Assembly (NCBI RefSeq): GCF_017348835.2
Contig: NZ_CP071375.1
Length of the DNA: 64,000 bases
Source: Escherichia coli
GTDB taxonomy: Bacteria > Pseudomonadota > Gammaproteobacteria > Enterobacterales > Enterobacteriaceae
Direction: 5' to 3' (one strand)
Shown: piece by piece, positions 6,409-61,312 of the stretch
Numbering within the stretch: position 1 is the stretch's first letter
Layout: the number at the start of each line of letters is the position of its first letter
The notes under the pieces: generated by a model
The model's input: the letters and a program-made list of their open reading frames with translations, nothing else
What the model was told of the DNA's origin: nothing
Database searches by the model: none
Translations under genes and position numbers: made by a program

Positions 6409-7308
6409 GTGGCGCTACTTATCATCACCACGATTCTGTGGGCCTTCTCCTTTAGCTTTTATGGCGAGTACCTTGCGGGGCACGTCGATAGCTATTTTGC
6501 GGTGCTGGTGCGCGTTGGCCTGGCGGCACTCGTTTTTCTGCCGTTTCTGCGTACCCGTGGCAATAGCCTGAAAACAGTCGGCCTGTATATGCTGGTGGGC
6601 GCGATGCAGCTCGGCGTGATGTATATGCTGAGTTTCCGCGCTTATCTCTACCTGACGGTTTCCGAACTGCTGCTGTTCACCGTACTGACGCCGCTCTACA
6701 TCACGCTGATTTATGACATCATGAGTAAGCGCCGTCTGCGCTGGGGATATGCTTTTAGTGCCTTGTTGGCGGTGATTGGTGCCGGGATTATTCGCTATGA
6801 TCAGGTCACCGACCATTTCTGGACTGGCTTGTTGCTGGTGCAACTCTCCAATATCACTTTTGCCATCGGCATGGTGGGTTACAAACGCCTGATGGAAACT
6901 CGCCCGATGCCGCAGCATAACGCCTTTGCGTGGTTCTATCTTGGCGCGTTCCTGGTGGCGGTAATTGCATGGTTCTTGCTGGGAAATGCGCAGAAAATGC
7001 CGCAAACCACGTTGCAATGGGGCATTCTGGTGTTTCTTGGCGTGGTGGCTTCCGGGATTGGCTACTTTATGTGGAACTACGGCGCAACCCAAGTAGACGC
7101 CGGAACGCTGGGCATTATGAATAATATGCACGTTCCGGCAGGGCTGCTGGTTAACCTTGCTATCTGGCACCAACAGCCGCACTGGCCAACGTTTATTACA
7201 GGCGCGCTGGTGATCCTGGCCTCACTGTGGGTGCATCGTAAGTGGGTCGCTCCGCGCTCTTCACAAACGGCAGATGATCGCAGGCGTGATTGCGCGCTGA
7301 GCGAATAA
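6409..7308 (+). CDS. yigM: EamA/DMT-family inner membrane transporter YigM (biotin transporter BioP)
   Basis: 299-aa polytopic ORF, GTG start; recognised as YigM; 3' end overlaps metR convergently. Confidence 0.85.
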
Positions 7309-14186: not shown

Positions 14187-14942
14187 ATGGTGGATAAGTC
14201 ACAAGAAACGACGCACTTTGGTTTTCAGACCGTCGCGAAGGAACAAAAAGCGGATATGGTCGCCCACGTTTTCCATTCCGTGGCATCAAAATACGATGTC
14301 ATGAATGATTTGATGTCATTTGGTATTCATCGTTTGTGGAAGCGATTCACGATTGATTGCAGCGGCGTACGCCGTGGGCAGACCGTGCTGGATCTGGCTG
14401 GTGGCACCGGCGACCTGACAGCGAAATTCTCCCGCCTGGTCGGAGAAACTGGCAAAGTGGTCCTTGCTGATATCAATGAATCCATGCTCAAAATGGGCCG
14501 CGAGAAGCTGCGTAATATCGGTGTGATTGGCAACGTTGAGTATGTTCAGGCGAACGCTGAGGCGCTGCCGTTCCCGGATAACACCTTTGATTGCATCACC
14601 ATTTCGTTTGGTCTGCGTAACGTCACCGACAAAGATAAAGCATTGCGTTCAATGTATCGCGTGCTGAAACCCGGCGGCCGCCTGCTGGTGCTTGAGTTCT
14701 CGAAGCCAATTATCGAGCCGCTGAGCAAAGCCTATGATGCATACTCCTTCCATGTGCTGCCGCGTATTGGCTCACTGGTCGCGAACGACGCCGACAGCTA
14801 CCGTTATCTGGCAGAATCCATCCGTATGCATCCCGATCAGGATACCCTGAAAGCCATGATGCAGGATGCCGGATTCGAAAGTGTCGACTACTACAATCTG
14901 ACTGCAGGGGTTGTGGCGCTGCATCGTGGTTATAAGTTCTGA
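14187..14942 (+). CDS. ubiE: Ubiquinone/menaquinone C-methyltransferase UbiE
   Basis: 251-aa ORF with SAM-binding LDLAGGTGD motif. Confidence 0.95.
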
Positions 14943-14955
14943 CAGGAGACCGGAA

Positions 14956-17198
<2,243 letters not shown>

Positions 17199-18885: not shown

Positions 18886-20198
<1,313 letters not shown>

Positions 20199-26303: not shown

Positions 26304-27635
26304 ATGGAATCACTGGCCTCGCTCTATAAAAATCATATAGCTACCTTACAAGAACGGACTCGCGATGCGCTGGCGCGCTTCAAGCTGGATGCGTTACTTA
26401 TTCACTCCGGCGAGCTGTTCAATGTTTTTCTCGACGATCATCCCTATCCGTTTAAAGTGAACCCGCAATTCAAAGCGTGGGTGCCGGTAACTCAGGTGCC
26501 AAACTGCTGGTTGCTGGTGGATGGCGTGAACAAGCCGAAACTGTGGTTTTATCTGCCGGTTGATTACTGGCACAACGTCGAACCGCTGCCGACCTCCTTC
26601 TGGACTGAAGATGTGGAAGTGATCGCGCTGCCGAAAGCCGATGGCATTGGTAGCCTGCTGCCTGCTGCGCGCGGCAATATCGGTTATATCGGTCCGGTGC
26701 CGGAGCGTGCGCTGCAACTGGGTATTGAGGCCAGCAACATCAACCCGAAAGGGGTTATCGACTACCTGCATTACTATCGCTCCTTCAAAACCGAGTACGA
26801 ACTGGCCTGTATGCGTGAAGCGCAGAAAATGGCGGTCAACGGTCATCGTGCGGCAGAAGAAGCGTTCCGTTCTGGCATGAGCGAGTTCGATATCAATATT
26901 GCCTATCTGACCGCGACCGGTCATCGTGATACCGACGTACCTTACAGCAACATTGTGGCGCTCAACGAACATGCTGCGGTGCTGCATTACACCAAACTGG
27001 ACCATCAGGCACCGGAAGAGATGCGCAGCTTCCTGCTGGATGCCGGGGCAGAATATAACGGCTATGCGGCTGACCTGACCCGTACCTGGTCGGCAAAAAG
27101 TGACAACGACTACGCGCAGCTGGTGAAGGACGTTAATGATGAACAACTGGCGCTGATCGCCACCATGAAAGCAGGCGTCAGCTATGTGGATTACCACATC
27201 CAGTTCCATCAGCGCATCGCCAAACTGCTGCGTAAACATCAAATCATCACCGATATGAGTGAAGAAGCGATGGTCGAAAACGATCTCACCGGACCGTTTA
27301 TGCCGCACGGTATCGGCCATCCGCTGGGCCTCCAGGTGCATGACGTCGCCGGTTTTATGCAGGATGATAGCGGTACGCACCTCGCGGCACCGGCAAAATA
27401 TCCGTACCTGCGCTGCACCCGTATTCTCCAGCCGGGCATGGTGTTAACCATCGAACCGGGTATCTACTTCATTGAATCGCTACTGGCACCGTGGCGTGAA
27501 GGGCAGTTCAGCAAGCACTTCAACTGGCAGAAAATTGAAGCACTGAAACCGTTCGGCGGCATTCGTATCGAAGACAACGTGGTGATCCACGAAAACAACG
27601 TGGAAAACATGACCCGGGATCTGAAACTGGCGTGA
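26304..27635 (+). CDS. pepQ: Xaa-Pro dipeptidase (prolidase) PepQ
   Basis: 443-aa ORF, M24 metallopeptidase, recognised as PepQ. Confidence 0.95.
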
Positions 27636-28249
27636 TGGAAAGCTGGTTAATTCCTGCGGCACCGGTCACGGTCGTTGAAGAGATCAAAAAGAGCCGCTTC
27701 ATAACGATGTTGGCGCATACCGATGGCGTTGAGGCGGCGAAAGCGTTTGTTGAATCGGTGCGGGCAGAACACCCCGATGCCCGGCACCATTGCGTGGCGT
27801 GGGTCGCGGGTGCGCCGGATGATTCTCAACAGCTGGGTTTCTCTGACGACGGGGAGCCGGCGGGAACGGCAGGTAAACCGATGCTCGCCCAGCTAATGGG
27901 CAGCGGCGTCGGGGAAATTACCGCTGTGGTAGTGCGTTACTACGGCGGCATATTGCTTGGCACCGGTGGGTTAGTGAAAGCGTATGGCGGCGGCGTGAAT
28001 CAGGCGCTGCGCCAGCTAACGACCCAACGCAAGACGCCATTAACCGAATATACTTTGCAATGTGAATATAGTCAGTTAACCGGCATTGAAGCGTTGCTGG
28101 GGCAGTGTGACGGCAAAATTATCAACAGTGATTATCAGGCATTCGTTCTGCTGCGGGTGGCGCTTCCGGCGGCGAAAGTGGCTGAATTTTCCGCAAAGCT
28201 GGCGGATTTTAGCCGTGGTTCATTGCAATTGTTAGCGATTGAAGAATAA
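27635..28249 (+). CDS. yigZ: IMPACT-family protein YigZ
   Basis: ORF track 27632..28249 (GTG); ATG at 27635 overlaps pepQ TGA (ATGA) giving 204 aa. Confidence 0.88.
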   Translation: MESWLIPAAPVTVVEEIKKSRFITMLAHTDGVEAAKAFVESVRAEHPDARHHCVAWVAGAPDDSQQLGFSDDGEPAGTAGKPMLAQLMGSGVGEITAVVVRYYGGILLGTGGLVKAYGGGVNQALRQLTTQRKTPLTEYTLQCEYSQLTGIEALLGQCDGKIINSDYQAFVLLRVALPAAKVAEFSAKLADFSRGSLQLLAIEE

Positions 28250-28287
28250 TCCCCACTTCGTTTTGCAGAACTAAGGAAGCGGCAGAG

Positions 28288-29739
28288 ATGCATTTTCGCG
28301 CCATTACCCGAATCGTTGGACTACTGGTCATCTTATTTTCAGGGACCATGATTATCCCTGGGCTGGTAGCACTCATCTACCGGGATGGAGCGGGCCGCGC
28401 TTTTACCCAGACCTTTTTTGTCGCCCTCGCCATTGGCTCTATGCTGTGGTGGCCGAACCGCAAAGAGAAGGGCGAACTGAAATCCCGTGAGGGGTTTCTG
28501 ATAGTGGTGCTGTTCTGGACCGTGCTGGGTAGTGTCGGTGCGCTCCCTTTTATCTTCTCGGAAAGCCCGAACCTCACGATTACCGATGCGTTTTTTGAAT
28601 CTTTCTCTGGCCTGACCACCACCGGGGCCACTACGCTGGTGGGGCTGGATTCGCTCCCTCATGCCATCCTCTTTTATCGCCAGATGCTGCAATGGTTTGG
28701 CGGGATGGGGATCATCGTGTTAGCGGTTGCGATACTGCCTATCCTCGGCGTGGGTGGGATGCAGCTCTATCGTGCAGAAATGCCCGGCCCGCTGAAAGAT
28801 AACAAAATGCGCCCGCGAATTGCGGAAACGGCGAAAACCCTGTGGTTGATTTATGTCTTGCTGACCGTCGCCTGTGCGCTGGCGTTGTGGTTTGCCGGAA
28901 TGGATGCCTTTGATGCCATCGGCCATAGCTTTGCGACTATCGCTATTGGCGGCTTCTCGACACATGATGCCAGTATCGGTTATTTCGATAGCCCGACTAT
29001 TAACACTATCATTGCTATCTTCCTGCTGATCTCCGGCTGTAACTACGGTCTGCACTTTTCACTGTTAAGTGGGCGTAGTCTGAAGGTTTATTGGCGCGAT
29101 CCGGAATTTCGCATGTTTATCGGCGTACAGTTTACGCTGGTGGTTATTTGTACCCTCGTACTGTGGTTTCATAATGTCTACAGTTCGGCGCTGATGACAA
29201 TTAACCAGGCGTTTTTCCAGGTGGTGTCGATGGCGACAACCGCCGGGTTTACGACTGACAGCATTGCCCGCTGGCCGCTCTTTTTGCCGGTACTGCTTTT
29301 ATGTTCAGCTTTTATCGGCGGTTGTGCCGGGTCAACGGGCGGTGGCCTGAAAGTGATCCGCATCCTGCTGCTGTTTAAGCAGGGGAACCGTGAACTGAAA
29401 CGACTGGTGCATCCGAACGCCGTCTATAGCATTAAGCTGGGGAATCGCGCACTGCCGGAACGTATCCTCGAAGCCGTTTGGGGATTTTTCTCCGCCTATG
29501 CATTGGTGTTTATTGTCAGTATGCTGGCGATTATCGCCACGGGCGTGGATGACTTTTCTGCCTTTGCCTCGGTTGTTGCGACATTGAATAACCTGGGGCC
29601 AGGGCTTGGCGTGGTTGCTGATAACTTTACCAGTATGAACCCGGTGGCTAAATGGATCCTGATTGCCAACATGCTGTTTGGTCGTCTCGAGGTCTTTACA
29701 TTGCTGGTGCTCTTTACCCCGACTTTCTGGCGTGAATGA
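28288..29739 (+). CDS. trkH: Potassium uptake protein TrkH
   Basis: 483-aa polytopic ORF recognised as TrkH. Confidence 0.95.
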   Translation: MHFRAITRIVGLLVILFSGTMIIPGLVALIYRDGAGRAFTQTFFVALAIGSMLWWPNRKEKGELKSREGFLIVVLFWTVLGSVGALPFIFSESPNLTITDAFFESFSGLTTTGATTLVGLDSLPHAILFYRQMLQWFGGMGIIVLAVAILPILGVGGMQLYRAEMPGPLKDNKMRPRIAETAKTLWLIYVLLTVACALALWFAGMDAFDAIGHSFATIAIGGFSTHDASIGYFDSPTINTIIAIFLLISGCNYGLHFSLLSGRSLKVYWRDPEFRMFIGVQFTLVVICTLVLWFHNVYSSALMTINQAFFQVVSMATTAGFTTDSIARWPLFLPVLLLCSAFIGGCAGSTGGGLKVIRILLLFKQGNRELKRLVHPNAVYSIKLGNRALPERILEAVWGFFSAYALVFIVSMLAIIATGVDDFSAFASVVATLNNLGPGLGVVADNFTSMNPVAKWILIANMLFGRLEVFTLLVLFTPTFWRE

Positions 29740-35869: not shown

Positions 35870-36397
35870 TTATCCGTCCTGATTTTGCATCCACTCCACC
35901 ACAAAATCAGCCAGCCCCTCAACATCATTAATATCCAGTAATGCGACATCAAGATTAAGCGGCACATCACTGGCTACAGCAATAACATGCCTGTCTATCA
36001 CTAATTCTTCAGGTCGATGTCCGGCTCCATCGCGAAACAGCACAATCTTTGCGATCTCTTCATGCTTAAACTCTTCGACCAGAATCAAATCCAGCTTTGA
36101 GGTATCCATTCGACTTGCGAGAAAATGTAGATCCAGCTCTTCTTCGTCTGGTGTTTCCGTCATCAAGGCCCATCGTTGCTGGCTGGCAACGATGGTTTGT
36201 GCCGCGCCAGCCTTGCGCAGCTCATAGCTATCTTTGCCTGGCTTATCAACATCCATATCATGGTGCGTATGCTTAATCAGCCCTGGACGGATCCCTCTGG
36301 CGCATAATGCCGGGATCAGTTTTTTCAAAAGCGTAGTTTTTCCGGTACCACTCCACGCGGCAAAGGCGAGTAACGGTATCATCGTTTTTCCTGCCAT
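35870..36397 (-). CDS. mobB: Molybdopterin-guanine dinucleotide biosynthesis adapter MobB
   Basis: 175-aa ORF with Walker A GTGKTT; recognised as MobB. Confidence 0.93.
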
Positions 36398-36963
36398 CGG
36401 GCAAGCTCCTCTGGCGTATTCACGTTAACAAATGCATCTTTATGATCGCTGAAATCAACCGCATGACCGCCAGCCAGACGCATAAATGCCATTACCCGGC
36501 GTTCTCCTGCTTGCAGATATTCCAGTAATAAAGGCTCAATAGCGCGGTTTACCAGAGCAATAGTCGGGTGATCGCGTTCACCGTCATGGACCCACACGAC
36601 AGGCGCATCTTTGCGCTGATGATTAAGCCTGGCTGCTAAATCAGGGGGAATGTAAGGCGTATCGCACGGGCAAAACAAAAACCACTCACCAGCTTCCTGC
36701 TGCATTACTGAAAGCATTCCTGCCAGAGGGCCTGGGTAATCCGCCAGTGAATCTTCAATCACTTTCAGACCGCCTGCCTGATAGATTTCCTGATGACGAT
36801 TAGCATTAACCACGACGTGAGAGAGCTGCGTCATAAGCGCGTCAGCGACATGTTGCCACAGCGGTTTGCCATTTAAGTCCAGCAATCCTTTATCTACGCC
36901 GCCCATTCGTCTGGCTTTACCGCCTGCCAGCACAACGCCTGTTATCGTCGTCATCAGATTCAC
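36379..36963 (-). CDS. mobA: Molybdenum cofactor guanylyltransferase MobA
   Basis: 194-aa ORF recognised as MobA; 19-nt overlap with mobB. Confidence 0.93.
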
Positions 36964-44716: not shown

Positions 44717-44863
44717 GATTCGCCTGAACATGCCCTTTTTTCGTAAGTAAGCAACATAAGCTGTCACGTTTTGTGATGGCTATTAGAAATTCCTATGCAA
44801 CAACTGAAAAAAAATTACAAAAAGTGCTTTCTGAACTGAACAAAAAAGAGTAAAGTTAGTCGC

Positions 44864-44972
44864 GTAGGGTACAGAGGTAAGATGTTCTATCTTTCAGACC
44901 TTTTACTTCACGTAATCGGATTTGGCTGAATATTTTAGCCGCCCCAGTCAGTAATGACTGGGGCGTTTTTTA
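44864..44972 (+). ncRNA. spf: Spot 42 small regulatory RNA
   Basis: GTAGGGTACAGAGGTAAGATGTTCTATCTTTCAGACCTTTTACTTCACGTAATCGGATTTGGCTGAATATTTTAGCCGCCCCAGTCAGTAATGACTGGGGCGTTTTTTA matches the known Spot 42 sequence with its intrinsic terminator; located just downstream of polA as in K-12. Confidence 0.92.
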
Positions 44973-46000: not shown

Positions 46001-46245
46001 ATAGAGCGAGGACGCTAACAGGAACAATGACTCAGGATGAGGGTCAGGAGCGCCAGGAGGCGAAGACAGAGGATTGTCAGGAAGACAAACGTCCGGAGAC
46101 GTAATTAAACGGAAATGGAATCAACACGGATTGTTCCGGCTAATGGAAAAACAGGGTGTGTTGGCGGCCTGCAAGGATTGTAAGACCCGTTAAGGGTTAT
46201 GAGTCAGGAAAAAAGGCGACAGAGTAATCTGTCGCCTTTTTTCTT
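46001..46245 (+). ncRNA. csrC: CsrC small RNA (CsrA-sequestering)
   Basis: About 245 nt with many GGA motifs (AGGACG, CAGGAUGA, CAGGAGC, CAGGAGG, CAGAGGA, CAGGAAG, ACGGAAA...), ending in hairpin GGCGACAGAGTAATCTGTCGCC plus TTTTTTCTTTG; sits between engB and yihI as in K-12. Confidence 0.8.
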
Positions 46246-46311
46246 TGCTTGCTTTCTGTTAGATTCCGCCGCAAATCTATACTGAATAAAACGGCTAAAA
46301 GACGAACCATT

Positions 46312-52998: not shown

Positions 52999-53067
52999 TG
53001 CACCATGATGTGAATGTTGCACCAATATAGTGCTTCAATGGAAACATTAAGCACCATATTGGTGCAA
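52999..53067. promoter_or_regulatory. NtrC enhancer sites upstream of glnAp2
   Basis: TGCACCATGATGTGAATGTTGCACCAA and GCACCATATTGGTGCAA dyads (TGCACC-N5-GGTGCA-like). Confidence 0.7.
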
Positions 53068-53217
53068 TGACCTTTGGATAACCCTTTTTATGCTCCGTGA
53101 AAGCGATCACAAAGGGACTCTGCAATACTTGTTTGCGGAGGATGTTTGTGATCCTGTTTTGTAGTGCGATTAATCCGTGTACAATAACGCGCTATTTCTA
53201 ATGCCTGAGGCAAAGTT

Positions 53218-55041
53218 GTGATCGAAAAATTGCGTAATATCGCCATCATCGCGCACGTAGACCATGGTAAAACCACCCTGGTAGACAAGCTGCTCCAACA
53301 ATCCGGTACGTTCGACTCTCGTGCCGAAACCCAAGAGCGCGTGATGGACTCCAACGATTTGGAGAAAGAGCGTGGGATTACCATCCTCGCGAAAAACACC
53401 GCTATCAAATGGAATGATTACCGTATCAACATCGTTGATACCCCGGGGCACGCCGACTTCGGTGGTGAAGTTGAACGTGTAATGTCCATGGTAGACTCAG
53501 TGCTGCTGGTGGTTGACGCATTTGACGGCCCGATGCCGCAAACGCGCTTCGTAACCAAAAAAGCGTTTGCTTACGGCCTGAAGCCGATTGTTGTTATCAA
53601 CAAAGTTGACCGCCCTGGCGCGCGTCCTGATTGGGTTGTGGATCAGGTATTCGATCTGTTCGTTAACCTCGACGCGACCGACGAGCAGCTGGACTTCCCG
53701 ATCGTTTACGCTTCTGCGCTTAACGGTATCGCGGGTCTGGACCACGAAGATATGGCGGAAGACATGACCCCGCTGTATCAGGCGATTGTTGATCACGTTC
53801 CTGCGCCGGACGTTGACCTTGACGGTCCGTTCCAGATGCAGATTTCTCAGCTCGATTACAACAGCTATGTTGGCGTTATCGGCATTGGCCGCATCAAGCG
53901 CGGTAAAGTGAAGCCGAACCAGCAGGTCACTATCATCGATAGCGAAGGCAAAACCCGCAACGCGAAAGTCGGTAAAGTGCTGGGCCACCTCGGTCTGGAA
54001 CGTATCGAAACCGATCTGGCGGAAGCTGGCGATATCGTGGCGATCACGGGCCTGGGCGAACTGAACATTTCTGACACCGTTTGCGACACGCAAAACGTTG
54101 AAGCGCTGCCGGCACTCTCCGTTGATGAGCCGACCGTTTCTATGTTCTTCTGCGTTAACACCTCGCCGTTCTGCGGTAAAGAAGGTAAGTTCGTAACGTC
54201 TCGTCAGATCCTGGATCGTCTGAACAAAGAACTGGTACACAACGTTGCGCTGCGCGTAGAAGAAACCGAAGACGCCGATGCGTTCCGCGTTTCTGGTCGT
54301 GGCGAACTGCACCTGTCTGTTCTGATCGAAAACATGCGTCGTGAAGGTTTCGAACTGGCGGTATCCCGTCCGAAAGTTATCTTCCGTGAAATCGACGGTC
54401 GTAAACAAGAGCCGTATGAAAACGTGACTCTGGACGTTGAAGAACAGCATCAGGGTTCTGTAATGCAGGCGCTGGGCGAACGTAAAGGCGACCTGAAAAA
54501 CATGAATCCAGACGGTAAAGGCCGCGTACGTCTCGACTACGTGATCCCAAGTCGTGGTCTGATTGGCTTCCGTTCTGAGTTCATGACCATGACTTCCGGT
54601 ACTGGTCTGCTGTACTCCACCTTCAGCCACTACGACGACGTACGTCCGGGCGAAGTGGGTCAGCGTCAGAACGGTGTACTGATCTCTAACGGTCAGGGTA
54701 AAGCGGTCGCGTTCGCGCTGTTCGGTCTGCAGGATCGCGGTAAGCTGTTCCTCGGTCACGGTGCAGAAGTTTACGAAGGTCAAATTATCGGTATTCACAG
54801 CCGCTCTAACGACCTGACTGTAAACTGCCTGACCGGTAAGAAACTGACCAACATGCGTGCTTCCGGTACTGACGAAGCCGTTGTTCTGGTTCCGCCTATC
54901 CGCATGACTCTGGAACAAGCTCTGGAGTTCATCGATGATGACGAACTGGTAGAAGTGACTCCGACCTCTATTCGTATTCGTAAACGTCACCTGACGGAAA
55001 ACGATCGTCGCCGCGCCAACCGCGCACCGAAAGACGATTAA
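53218..55041 (+). CDS. typA: Ribosome-associated translational GTPase BipA/TypA
   Basis: 607-aa ORF, GTG start, EF-G-like GTPase ([14 protein letters not shown]). Confidence 0.95.
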
Positions 55042-55060
55042 TTTCGTTTTTTAGTCATAA

Positions 55061-55090
55061 AAAACCTGCCAGCGATGGCAGGTTTTTTTT
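55061..55090 (+). terminator. Rho-independent terminator after typA
   Basis: AAACCTGCCAGCGATGGCAGGTTT hairpin followed by TTTTTTTTTG. Confidence 0.75.
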
Positions 55091-55257
55091 TGCCTGTCGT
55101 GAGCGCACACCAATGCGAGTATCTCCCTTATAAGTCTGTGATTACGTCAATAGAGAGCTTTGTCACAATTATCTGCAAAGTCATACACCGTTAATTGCTT
55201 TCTTTTTTGGCGTAAGCGTAAGATGCTTCATCTGGTTTAAACCAAAAGGATTAAACA

Positions 55258-60098: not shown

Positions 60099-60986
60099 TC
60101 AGGCTGCCAGATCATTATTTCCGATGGAAGCATAATAAGCTTTTTCTGCTTCTGCCGGAGGAATATGGCCCAGCCTTTCCAGCAATCGTCGATTGTTATA
60201 CCAGTCCACCCACGTTAGTGTGGCCAGTTCCACTTCTGTCCGGTTTTTCCAGCTCTTACGGTGTATTACCTCCGCTTTGTAAAGACCATTGATGCTCTCA
60301 GCCATCGCGTTGTCATACGAGTCGCCAGTACTCCCTGTTGATGCCAGTAATCCGGCTTCCTTAAGCCGCTGCGTGTAGGCCAGCGATACATACTGAGAAC
60401 CTTTATCACTGTGATGGATTGTGCCGGACGGCCGACGGGCCCACAACGCCTGCTCCAGTGCATCCAGCACGAATGTTGTTTCCATGGATGATGAGACCTG
60501 CCATCCCACGATGTATCCGGCGAACACATCAATGATGAACGCCACATAAACGAAGCCCTGCCATGTGCTTACCCAGGTAAAATCAGCCACCCACAACTGG
60601 TCTGGACGTTCTGCCACGAACTGACGGTTTACGCGGTCGCATGCGGCAACGGCTTTCCGGCTGACGGTAGTGCGGACCTTTTTACCCCGGAGAACACCGG
60701 CAAGTCCCATAACTGCCATGAGACGTGCCACAGTGCATCTGGCCACTCTGATACCTTCCCGTAACAACTGACGCCAGACTTTACGCACACCGTATACCTG
60801 GTGATTTTCATCGTATACGCGCTGTATCTCTTTCTTCAGCCAGTCATCGTGCTGCGCACGGGCACTGCGTTTATCCGGATGATGTCGCTGTTGCTGACAA
60901 TGGTAATACGTTGACGGGGCAATATGCAGTTCGCTGCATACCGGTCCGCCCCCGTACTGCTCACGCAGCTTATCCAGCAGTGGCAT
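60099..60986 (-). CDS. IS629 transposase OrfB (DDE catalytic part)
   Basis: 295-aa ORF in the -1 frame relative to OrfA, overlapping its stop (AAAAAATAATG); DDE integrase-like (…WVADFTW…HSDKGSQY…). Confidence 0.9.
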   Translation of the reverse strand: MPLLDKLREQYGGGPVCSELHIAPSTYYHCQQQRHHPDKRSARAQHDDWLKKEIQRVYDENHQVYGVRKVWRQLLREGIRVARCTVARLMAVMGLAGVLRGKKVRTTVSRKAVAACDRVNRQFVAERPDQLWVADFTWVSTWQGFVYVAFIIDVFAGYIVGWQVSSSMETTFVLDALEQALWARRPSGTIHHSDKGSQYVSLAYTQRLKEAGLLASTGSTGDSYDNAMAESINGLYKAEVIHRKSWKNRTEVELATLTWVDWYNNRRLLERLGHIPPAEAEKAYYASIGNNDLAA

Positions 60987-61312
60987 TATTTTTTCCAGAG
61001 GCGGTCGAACTCCGCCTTCGCAAAATAAGCGGAAGCCTGGCGAAGGATATCGTTACTGCGGCGCAGTTCACGATTTTCACGTTCCAGCTCTTTCAGACGC
61101 TGACGTTCAGCGGTGGTGAGTCCACCATCACCACTCCCGGTATCCCGCTCATGCTGGCGAACCCAGACACGCAGAGTCTCCGGCGTACAGCCAATCTTTG
61201 GGGCAATGGAACAAATTGCCGCCCACTGTGAGTCATATTCATCCTGACTTTCCAGAACCATACGAATCGCCCGCTGACGGACTTCGGGGGAAAAACGAGT
61301 ATTTTTAGTCAT
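60986..61312 (-). CDS. IS629 transposase OrfA (HTH DNA-binding part)
   Basis: 108-aa [26 protein letters not shown]... with leucine-zipper-like C-terminus, typical IS3 OrfA. Confidence 0.9.

Follow-up and report, generated by a model that had tools for sequence, protein, structure and literature searches.

The pepQ-yigZ junction of Escherichia coli: a one-nucleotide stop-start overlap compatible with translational coupling

At the junction of pepQ and yigZ in Escherichia coli, the codon that ends the first gene runs into the codon that begins the second, and two in-frame triplets, an ATG and a GTG, are candidates for the yigZ start. The questions raised by this locus are which of the two triplets opens yigZ and whether the resulting overlap ties the translation of yigZ to that of pepQ. 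The junction was analysed within a stretch of 64,000 nt of E. coli chromosomal DNA, hereafter the window, which aligned over its whole length to E. coli PE164 at 99.96% identity. A 2.2-kb query matched 5,425 of 5,426 complete E. coli genomes and was 100% identical to PE164. The pepQ-yigZ overlap is a known, already annotated and ordinary operon layout. An initial annotation of this DNA had likewise called it ordinary, and the literature agrees, as genes on the same strand in E. coli are most often spaced by -4 or -1 nt (PMC10666635; PMC12548453).

Genes and geometry of the junction

The upstream gene, pepQ (positions 26304-27635 of the window, + strand), encodes a 443-aa Xaa-Pro dipeptidase with Pfam matches to PepQ_N (5.5e-63) and Peptidase_M24 (7.1e-44), and is annotated as pepQ in RefSeq. 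The downstream gene, yigZ (27635-28249, + strand; 204 aa plus stop), belongs to the IMPACT family and is annotated as yigZ in RefSeq. Its product has the domain architecture of the IMPACT/YigZ family, in which UPF0029/Impact_N (PF01205, 6.1e-35, residues 18-125) is followed by DUF1949 (PF09186, 1.6e-15), and its match to PDB 1VI7, the solved crystal structure of YigZ from E. coli, has a value of 3.9e-133. Pfam matches well above the cut-offs, together with RefSeq, identify pepQ and yigZ as adjacent protein-coding genes that both lie on the + strand. The local gene order is fadA and fadB, which are divergent, followed by pepQ, yigZ, trkH and hemG, and then by rrnA. The trkH gene (28288-29739, + strand) begins 38 nt after yigZ in the same orientation and possesses its own Shine-Dalgarno (SD) sequence, AAGGA; a promoter-like site was found by consensus scan at 28223-28250, just upstream of trkH.

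Direct reading of the sequence places the pepQ stop codon, TGA, at 27633-27635 and the yigZ start codon, ATG, at 27635-27637, both on the + strand, with the A at 27635 common to the two. Bases 27630-27637 are GCG TGA TG, and the wider segment 27620-27640 is tctgaaactg gcgtgatgga a, in which the pepQ frame ends CTG AAA CTG GCG TGA. A stop and a start codon that share a single base in this way define the -1 overlap class, and the motif is TGATG. The initial annotation had located the shared A correctly and had misnamed the motif ATGA. No ATGA is present at 27632-27638, and the overlap with the ATG start is 1 nt, which places the pair outside the -4 class. A 4-nt overlap arises only as GTGA, when yigZ is started at the alternative in-frame GTG (27632-27634, + strand), a triplet composed of the last base of the Ala codon GCG and the TG of the stop; that start would give a 205-aa product. 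Short motifs of this kind are common in themselves: the hexamer GTGATG is found in 60 copies in the 64-kb window, versus approximately 34 expected, and the chance that a stop codon ending in A is followed by TG is about 1/16. The TGATG at this junction is nevertheless meaningful, because its ATG opens a 204-codon open reading frame (ORF) with Pfam matches and because the junction is invariant in 80 of 80 species.

The proposal that yigZ starts at the ATG rather than at the GTG agrees with both the RefSeq/PGAP and MG1655 annotations, and with the presence of the ATG in 80/80 species and of the GTG in 7/80. In the RefSeq annotation of PE164, pepQ ends and yigZ begins at one and the same base (2936 in locus coordinates), and the two genes also meet at a shared base in MG1655 and in the E. 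coli strain that diverges most among those sampled. In MG1655, yigZ (b3848, NP_418290.4) starts at 4032492, the position at which pepQ ends, and its 615 nt account for 204 amino acids plus the stop. The ORF track does begin yigZ at the upstream GTG, as had been noted: the mechanical list gives 27632-28249 and 205 aa, since its rule is to open each ORF at the earliest start codon that follows the preceding in-frame stop. The next in-frame ATG within yigZ is codon 25, and a start there would cut into the Impact_N domain; the N-termini of 11 distant YigZ homologues (39-52% identity) lie within two residues of E. coli Met1. The real start of yigZ is the ATG at 27635.

The junction was compared in 80 Enterobacteriaceae loci, one genome per species, in which YigZ identity ranged from 78 to 99%. 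Every one of these species has the yigZ ATG and the 1-nt overlap (T[GA]ATG), while neighbouring synonymous positions and the stop codon vary. The junction is TGATG in 36 species and TAATG in 44; pepQ thus ends in TGA 36 times, in TAA 44 times and never in TAG, which would destroy the yigZ ATG. Within the family, purifying selection acting on two conserved protein ends, the C-terminus of PepQ (…DLKLA) and the N-terminus of YigZ (MESW or MDSW), could by itself account for the invariance, and this explanation weakens the claim that the overlap is selected for the stoichiometry of PepQ and YigZ. The protein homologue search contained only close Enterobacteriaceae among the 120 matches listed. A distant sample was made up of representatives at 43-53% YigZ identity, located on their contigs; with the arrangements described below for this sample, the -1 geometry is a feature of the Enterobacteriaceae family level.

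Probable reinitiation or independent initiation at the yigZ start

The overlap had been taken to indicate translational coupling, which is plausible. An overlap permits coupling and is not proof of it: in reporter assays of native overlapping E. coli pairs, four of five were coupled and bioBF was not (PMC6728339). Coupling requires an overlap or a very short distance between the genes (PMC10666635; PMC6728339; PMC12548453), is most efficient from -4 to +3 nt (PMC12548453), and in the case of reinitiation collapses once the distance reaches about 20 nt (PMC10666635). The commonest spacing of unidirectional E. coli pairs is -4, followed by -1 and -8, and the range from -8 to +6 includes 707 of 2,987 pairs (PMC10666635).

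In the mechanism proposed for this junction, a ribosome that ends pepQ at the UGA would stay on the mRNA, pick up the AUG that overlaps the stop and translate yigZ by termination-reinitiation, and the output of yigZ would then be tied to the translation of pepQ. The layout is compatible with this mechanism and is probably used for it. Termination-reinitiation is the most likely reading because yigZ is without a usable SD and because a consensus pattern scan turned up nothing that would separate the genes, neither a promoter-like site on the + strand of pepQ nor a terminator-like site where pepQ meets yigZ. The two genes would then share one transcript, from which reinitiation, rather than independent initiation, would supply most of the YigZ protein.

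The only SD-like element upstream of yigZ is a weak GGGA (27616-27619, + strand), which at 15 nt before the ATG is too far away. For yigZ, the best calculated anti-SD duplex reaches only -1.5 kcal/mol where an SD would canonically sit, and the one at the GGGA reaches -4.1 kcal/mol; values elsewhere in the window are -9.3 for ubiB, -6.0 for trkH and -4.6 kcal/mol for pepQ. A conserved SD before yigZ was considered and rejected, given that the energies are weak across the 80 loci (median best anti-SD energy about -3 kcal/mol) and that the GGGA spans Arg CGN and Asp GAY codons, which are variable among species. No SD at a working distance of 5-10 nt from the yigZ start was found in E. coli or in any of the 80 species. 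For coupled pairs, an SD inside the upstream gene is typical and usually enhancing, and is not strictly defining. Removal of the SD lowered reinitiation in four of five E. coli pairs (Huber et al. 2019, PMC6728339), and bioBF, which is overlapping and has a weak SD, is translated by de novo initiation (PMC6728339). It follows that an SD-less junction could reinitiate poorly or could initiate independently.

Independent initiation is the alternative that survives best, although it is judged unlikely. Here the overlap would represent incidental compaction, and most translation of yigZ would come from ribosomes that load afresh onto an initiation region devoid of structure and of an SD, independently of pepQ translation. 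The example of bioBF, with its weak SD and de novo initiation, establishes that overlapping pairs can be uncoupled (PMC6728339), and the pepQ-yigZ junction itself has neither significant structure (z = -1.15) nor a conserved hairpin, so the yigZ AUG may be freely accessible. A possible source of yigZ message that lacks pepQ is also on record. MazF cleavage has been reported 28 nt upstream of yigZ (table entry "yigZ 28", PMC5001579), and an ACA at 27607-27609 (+ strand), 28 nt upstream of the yigZ ATG, is by its distance presumably the reported site. Such a cut would yield a pepQ-less yigZ mRNA under stress (PMC5001579).

The distant relatives also favor independent initiation, in that six of them have yigZ without pepQ upstream. 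Three of the six keep yigZ-trkH-hemG (L089, L091, L096) and have upstream of yigZ a phosphoesterase gene, a rhodanese gene (in a -8 overlap) or divergent fadBA, the last being the arrangement of L096, where yigZ is the first gene after fadBA. The other three (L088, L094, L095) have neither neighbour; in L088 and L094 different genes lie upstream of yigZ, and in L095 yigZ is preceded by an oppositely oriented gene. Where pepQ does precede yigZ, the spacing differs. A relative at 45% identity (L093) has a 10-nt gap (+10) between the two genes, so that a pepQ/yigZ pair without any overlap exists. Another, at 53% identity (L086), keeps pepQ-yigZ-trkH-hemG with an 8-nt overlap (-8) and a TTG start, TTGCCTGA, and the ATG of its TGATG is out of frame with yigZ. 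These arrangements indicate that the stable partners of yigZ are trkH and hemG, not pepQ.

Against independent initiation stand the absence of an SD at a working distance in all 80 Enterobacteriaceae species (0/80), the retention of the 1-nt overlap in the same 80/80, and the finding that most of the overlapping E. coli pairs tested were coupled (PMC6728339). Termination-reinitiation is retained as the preferred reading of the junction.

The upstream GTG and the predicted hairpin

Use of the GTG at 27632 as the main or a substantial second start of yigZ, which would create the GTGA overlap and a 205-aa protein beginning Met-Met-Glu, is very improbable. The triplet has several properties expected of a start: GTG is a valid bacterial start codon, is in frame with the ATG, is the earliest one downstream of the in-frame stop, and would give the NTGA (-4) arrangement that is the commonest coupling geometry (PMC12548453). 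A 205-aa model that used the GTG evidently preceded the present one: the accession NP_418290 has reached version 4, and the protein construct of PDB 1VI7 has the sequence …L-MESWLIP…, in which a residue from cloning occupies the place of the GTG-encoded Met. Initiation in E. coli is more efficient at AUG than at GUG, and the current curated and PGAP annotations choose the ATG.

The decisive evidence against the GTG comes from conservation. Among the 80 species, the triplet at its position is most often GTA, no start codon at all (43 species), and otherwise CTG (29), GTG (only 7) or CTA (1), while the neighbouring ATG never varies. The two bases that change in the triplet are the third base of the PepQ Ala codon (GCG/GCC) and the middle base of the stop (TGA/TAA), and the triplet thus seems to drift as an unconstrained sequence. 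The seven GTG cases are scattered among Escherichia, one Citrobacter amalonaticus, Leclercia and two other Enterobacteriaceae. Although independent variation at the two bases would predict about 22 species with GTG, a signal of GTG "avoidance" was rejected: the 80 species form genus-level clades that share GCG-TAA or GCC-TGA, and the deficit is on this account most simply phylogenetic. The GTG at 27632 arises by accident where the pepQ Ala codon GCG meets the TGA, and it has no conserved role; minor use of this codon for yigZ may take place in Escherichia. The papers that mention yigZ are silent on both coupling and the start codon, and the gene is absent from the supplements of the TRAINSPOTTER N-terminomics, tetracycline TIS profiling, Huber 2019 coupling and kasugamycin translatome studies.

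Coupling could also operate through RNA unfolding, in which a hairpin hides the start codon until ribosomes finishing pepQ melt it and a new ribosome binds, but there is little reason to believe that it does so here. A hairpin is predicted at 27631-27670 (+ strand), in which CGUGAUGG (27631-27638) pairs with CC.GGUCACG (27662-27670). The minimum-free-energy fold of 27585-27685 has an 8-bp stem that covers both the GUG and the AUG, and a stem core of 5-6 bp is possible in the majority of the 80 species. However, the stability of this fold is not above that of shuffled sequences (z = -1.15; 22 of 200 shuffles gave an equal or better fold), and of the pairs in the stem the centroid structure retains only four. 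An alignment of 81 sequences gave 75.7% paired cells versus 75.4% in shuffles, and its covariation score was reached by 165 of 500 shuffles; the conserved pairs fall in invariant coding columns. A new ribosome recruited in this way would, moreover, still be without an SD. With neither excess stability nor covariation, a conserved hairpin over the yigZ start was rejected, and the RNA-unfolding form of coupling is unsupported.

The idea that PepQ and YigZ are needed in a fixed ratio, perhaps as a complex or in one pathway, and that the SD-less overlap has been kept for this purpose, is the least credible of all, though if it were true the junction would hint at what the IMPACT proteins of bacteria do.

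Relation to other overlapping gene pairs

The significance of these findings is small and lies mainly in annotation hygiene. The 204-aa ATG model of yigZ is confirmed, the 205-aa GTG model that persists in the 1VI7 construct and in naive ORF calls is not right, and the overlap class is corrected from ATGA to TGATG. Published -1 overlap pairs resemble pepQ/yigZ in having the TGATG motif, co-directional ORFs with nothing between them, and family-wide conservation (PMC6728339; PMC10666635; PMC12548453). A difference from this published class is that PepQ and YigZ are not known as subunits of one complex. The published E. coli reporter tests employed -4 (ATGA) pairs, mostly with an SD (PMC6728339), whereas pepQ/yigZ has a -1 overlap without a usable SD. 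As a clean natural -1 overlap that lacks an SD, pepQ/yigZ represents a class outside these tests, and reinitiation that does not depend on an SD could be tested on it.

The bioB/bioF pair shares with pepQ/yigZ an overlapping stop and start codon and, ahead of the second gene, a very weak SD at most (PMC6728339). The two differ in that bioB/bioF has a 4-nt overlap and its independent initiation was demonstrated by experiment (PMC6728339), whereas pepQ/yigZ has a 1-nt overlap and its mode of initiation is predicted from sequence.

A second comparison is available within the same genome, where ubiJ and ubiB (ORFs 14911-15561 and 15558-17198, + strand) likewise have a stop/start overlap inside an operon and on the same strand. 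The initial annotation had cited this junction as showing the same arrangement as pepQ/yigZ. It carries a genuine ATGA, a 4-nt overlap at 15558-15561 that belongs to the -4 (ATGA) class, but this is a sister class and not the same arrangement. The ubiJ/ubiB overlap comprises four bases, and a strong SD, GGAGG (-9.3 kcal/mol), precedes ubiB, whereas the pepQ/yigZ overlap comprises a single base and has no SD.

Overlapping genes in the window

Among the same-strand annotated gene pairs of the window, overlap of a stop codon with the following start codon is found only at pepQ/yigZ (-1 spacing; shared base 27635) and at ubiJ/ubiB (-4 spacing; 15558-15561). Three other annotated overlaps involve a same-strand pair, mobA/mobB (19 nt, ~36381-36399), and two convergent pairs, rfaH/tatD (4 nt, ~19665-19668) and metR/bioP (113 nt, ~7196-7308); the coordinates of these three were converted from the closely related strain PE164 and are possibly off by 1-2 bases.

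The ubiJ/ubiB junction coincides with the end of a match to an RNA family. An Rfam match to RF02757 (the "Erse"/EsrE sRNA), which at 315 bits lies far over the gathering score, spans 15310-15561 (+). It falls entirely within the 3' portion of the ubiJ gene, and its last bases are precisely the ubiJ TGA in the ATGA overlap. This segment may function as an RNA or may simply encode the UbiJ C-terminus.

A possible MazF site upstream of yigZ

An ACA sequence is present at 27607-27609 (+), 28 nt 5' of the yigZ ATG, and yigZ is listed with a cleavage distance of 28 in a study of the MazF regulon (PMC5001579). Because of this agreement in distance, yigZ mRNA may be severed from pepQ under MazF stress, in which case the two genes would be uncoupled.

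Read-through, polymorphism, and genomic context of yigZ

A 303-aa protein from one E. coli assembly (P0001), named "elongation factor" and corresponding to window positions ~27340-28246, consists of a frameshifted PepQ C-terminus that continues into YigZ, with the GTG that precedes the yigZ ATG (27632-27634) read as an internal Val. The frameshift probably arose in the run of A residues near 27600, through either an indel or a mistake in sequencing. Within YigZ itself, residue 147 (codon 28073-28075) is Ser here vs. His in K-12 and in the crystal structure of the E. coli protein (PDB 1VI7), a difference that is a strain polymorphism.

Across distant relatives (loci L086, L089, L091, L093, and L096), trkH and hemG are conserved as neighbors of yigZ; pepQ is dispensable. 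The trkH and hemG neighbors in these relatives frequently show 1-nt overlaps or abut; in L089, one base is common to yigZ and trkH and another to trkH and hemG. Enterobacteriaceae-type pepQ-yigZ loci were also encountered under the labels Chryseobacterium sp. 18061 (locus L076), a Bacteroidota genus, and Vagococcus sp. WN89Y (protein P0109), a Firmicutes genus. Their YigZ proteins are 83-84% identical to that of E. coli, and both records are probably mislabeled or contaminated.

Other RNAs and the right end of the window

The CsrC sRNA was matched by Rfam at 46001-46254 (+) with 278 bits. Overlapping this stretch, PGAP annotates a pseudogene in PE164 ("hypothetical protein, frameshifted; internal stop"; 4851263-4851429, about 46029-46195 in the window), which looks like an annotation artefact placed on top of the sRNA gene. 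Further Rfam matches over the gathering score correspond to Spot 42 (44854-44972, +), ES222 (53029-53136, +), STnc370 (55026-55094, +), and, from an IS3-family transposase, the ALIL frameshift pseudoknot (60915-61031, -). IS elements and disrupted genes are found at the right end of the window.
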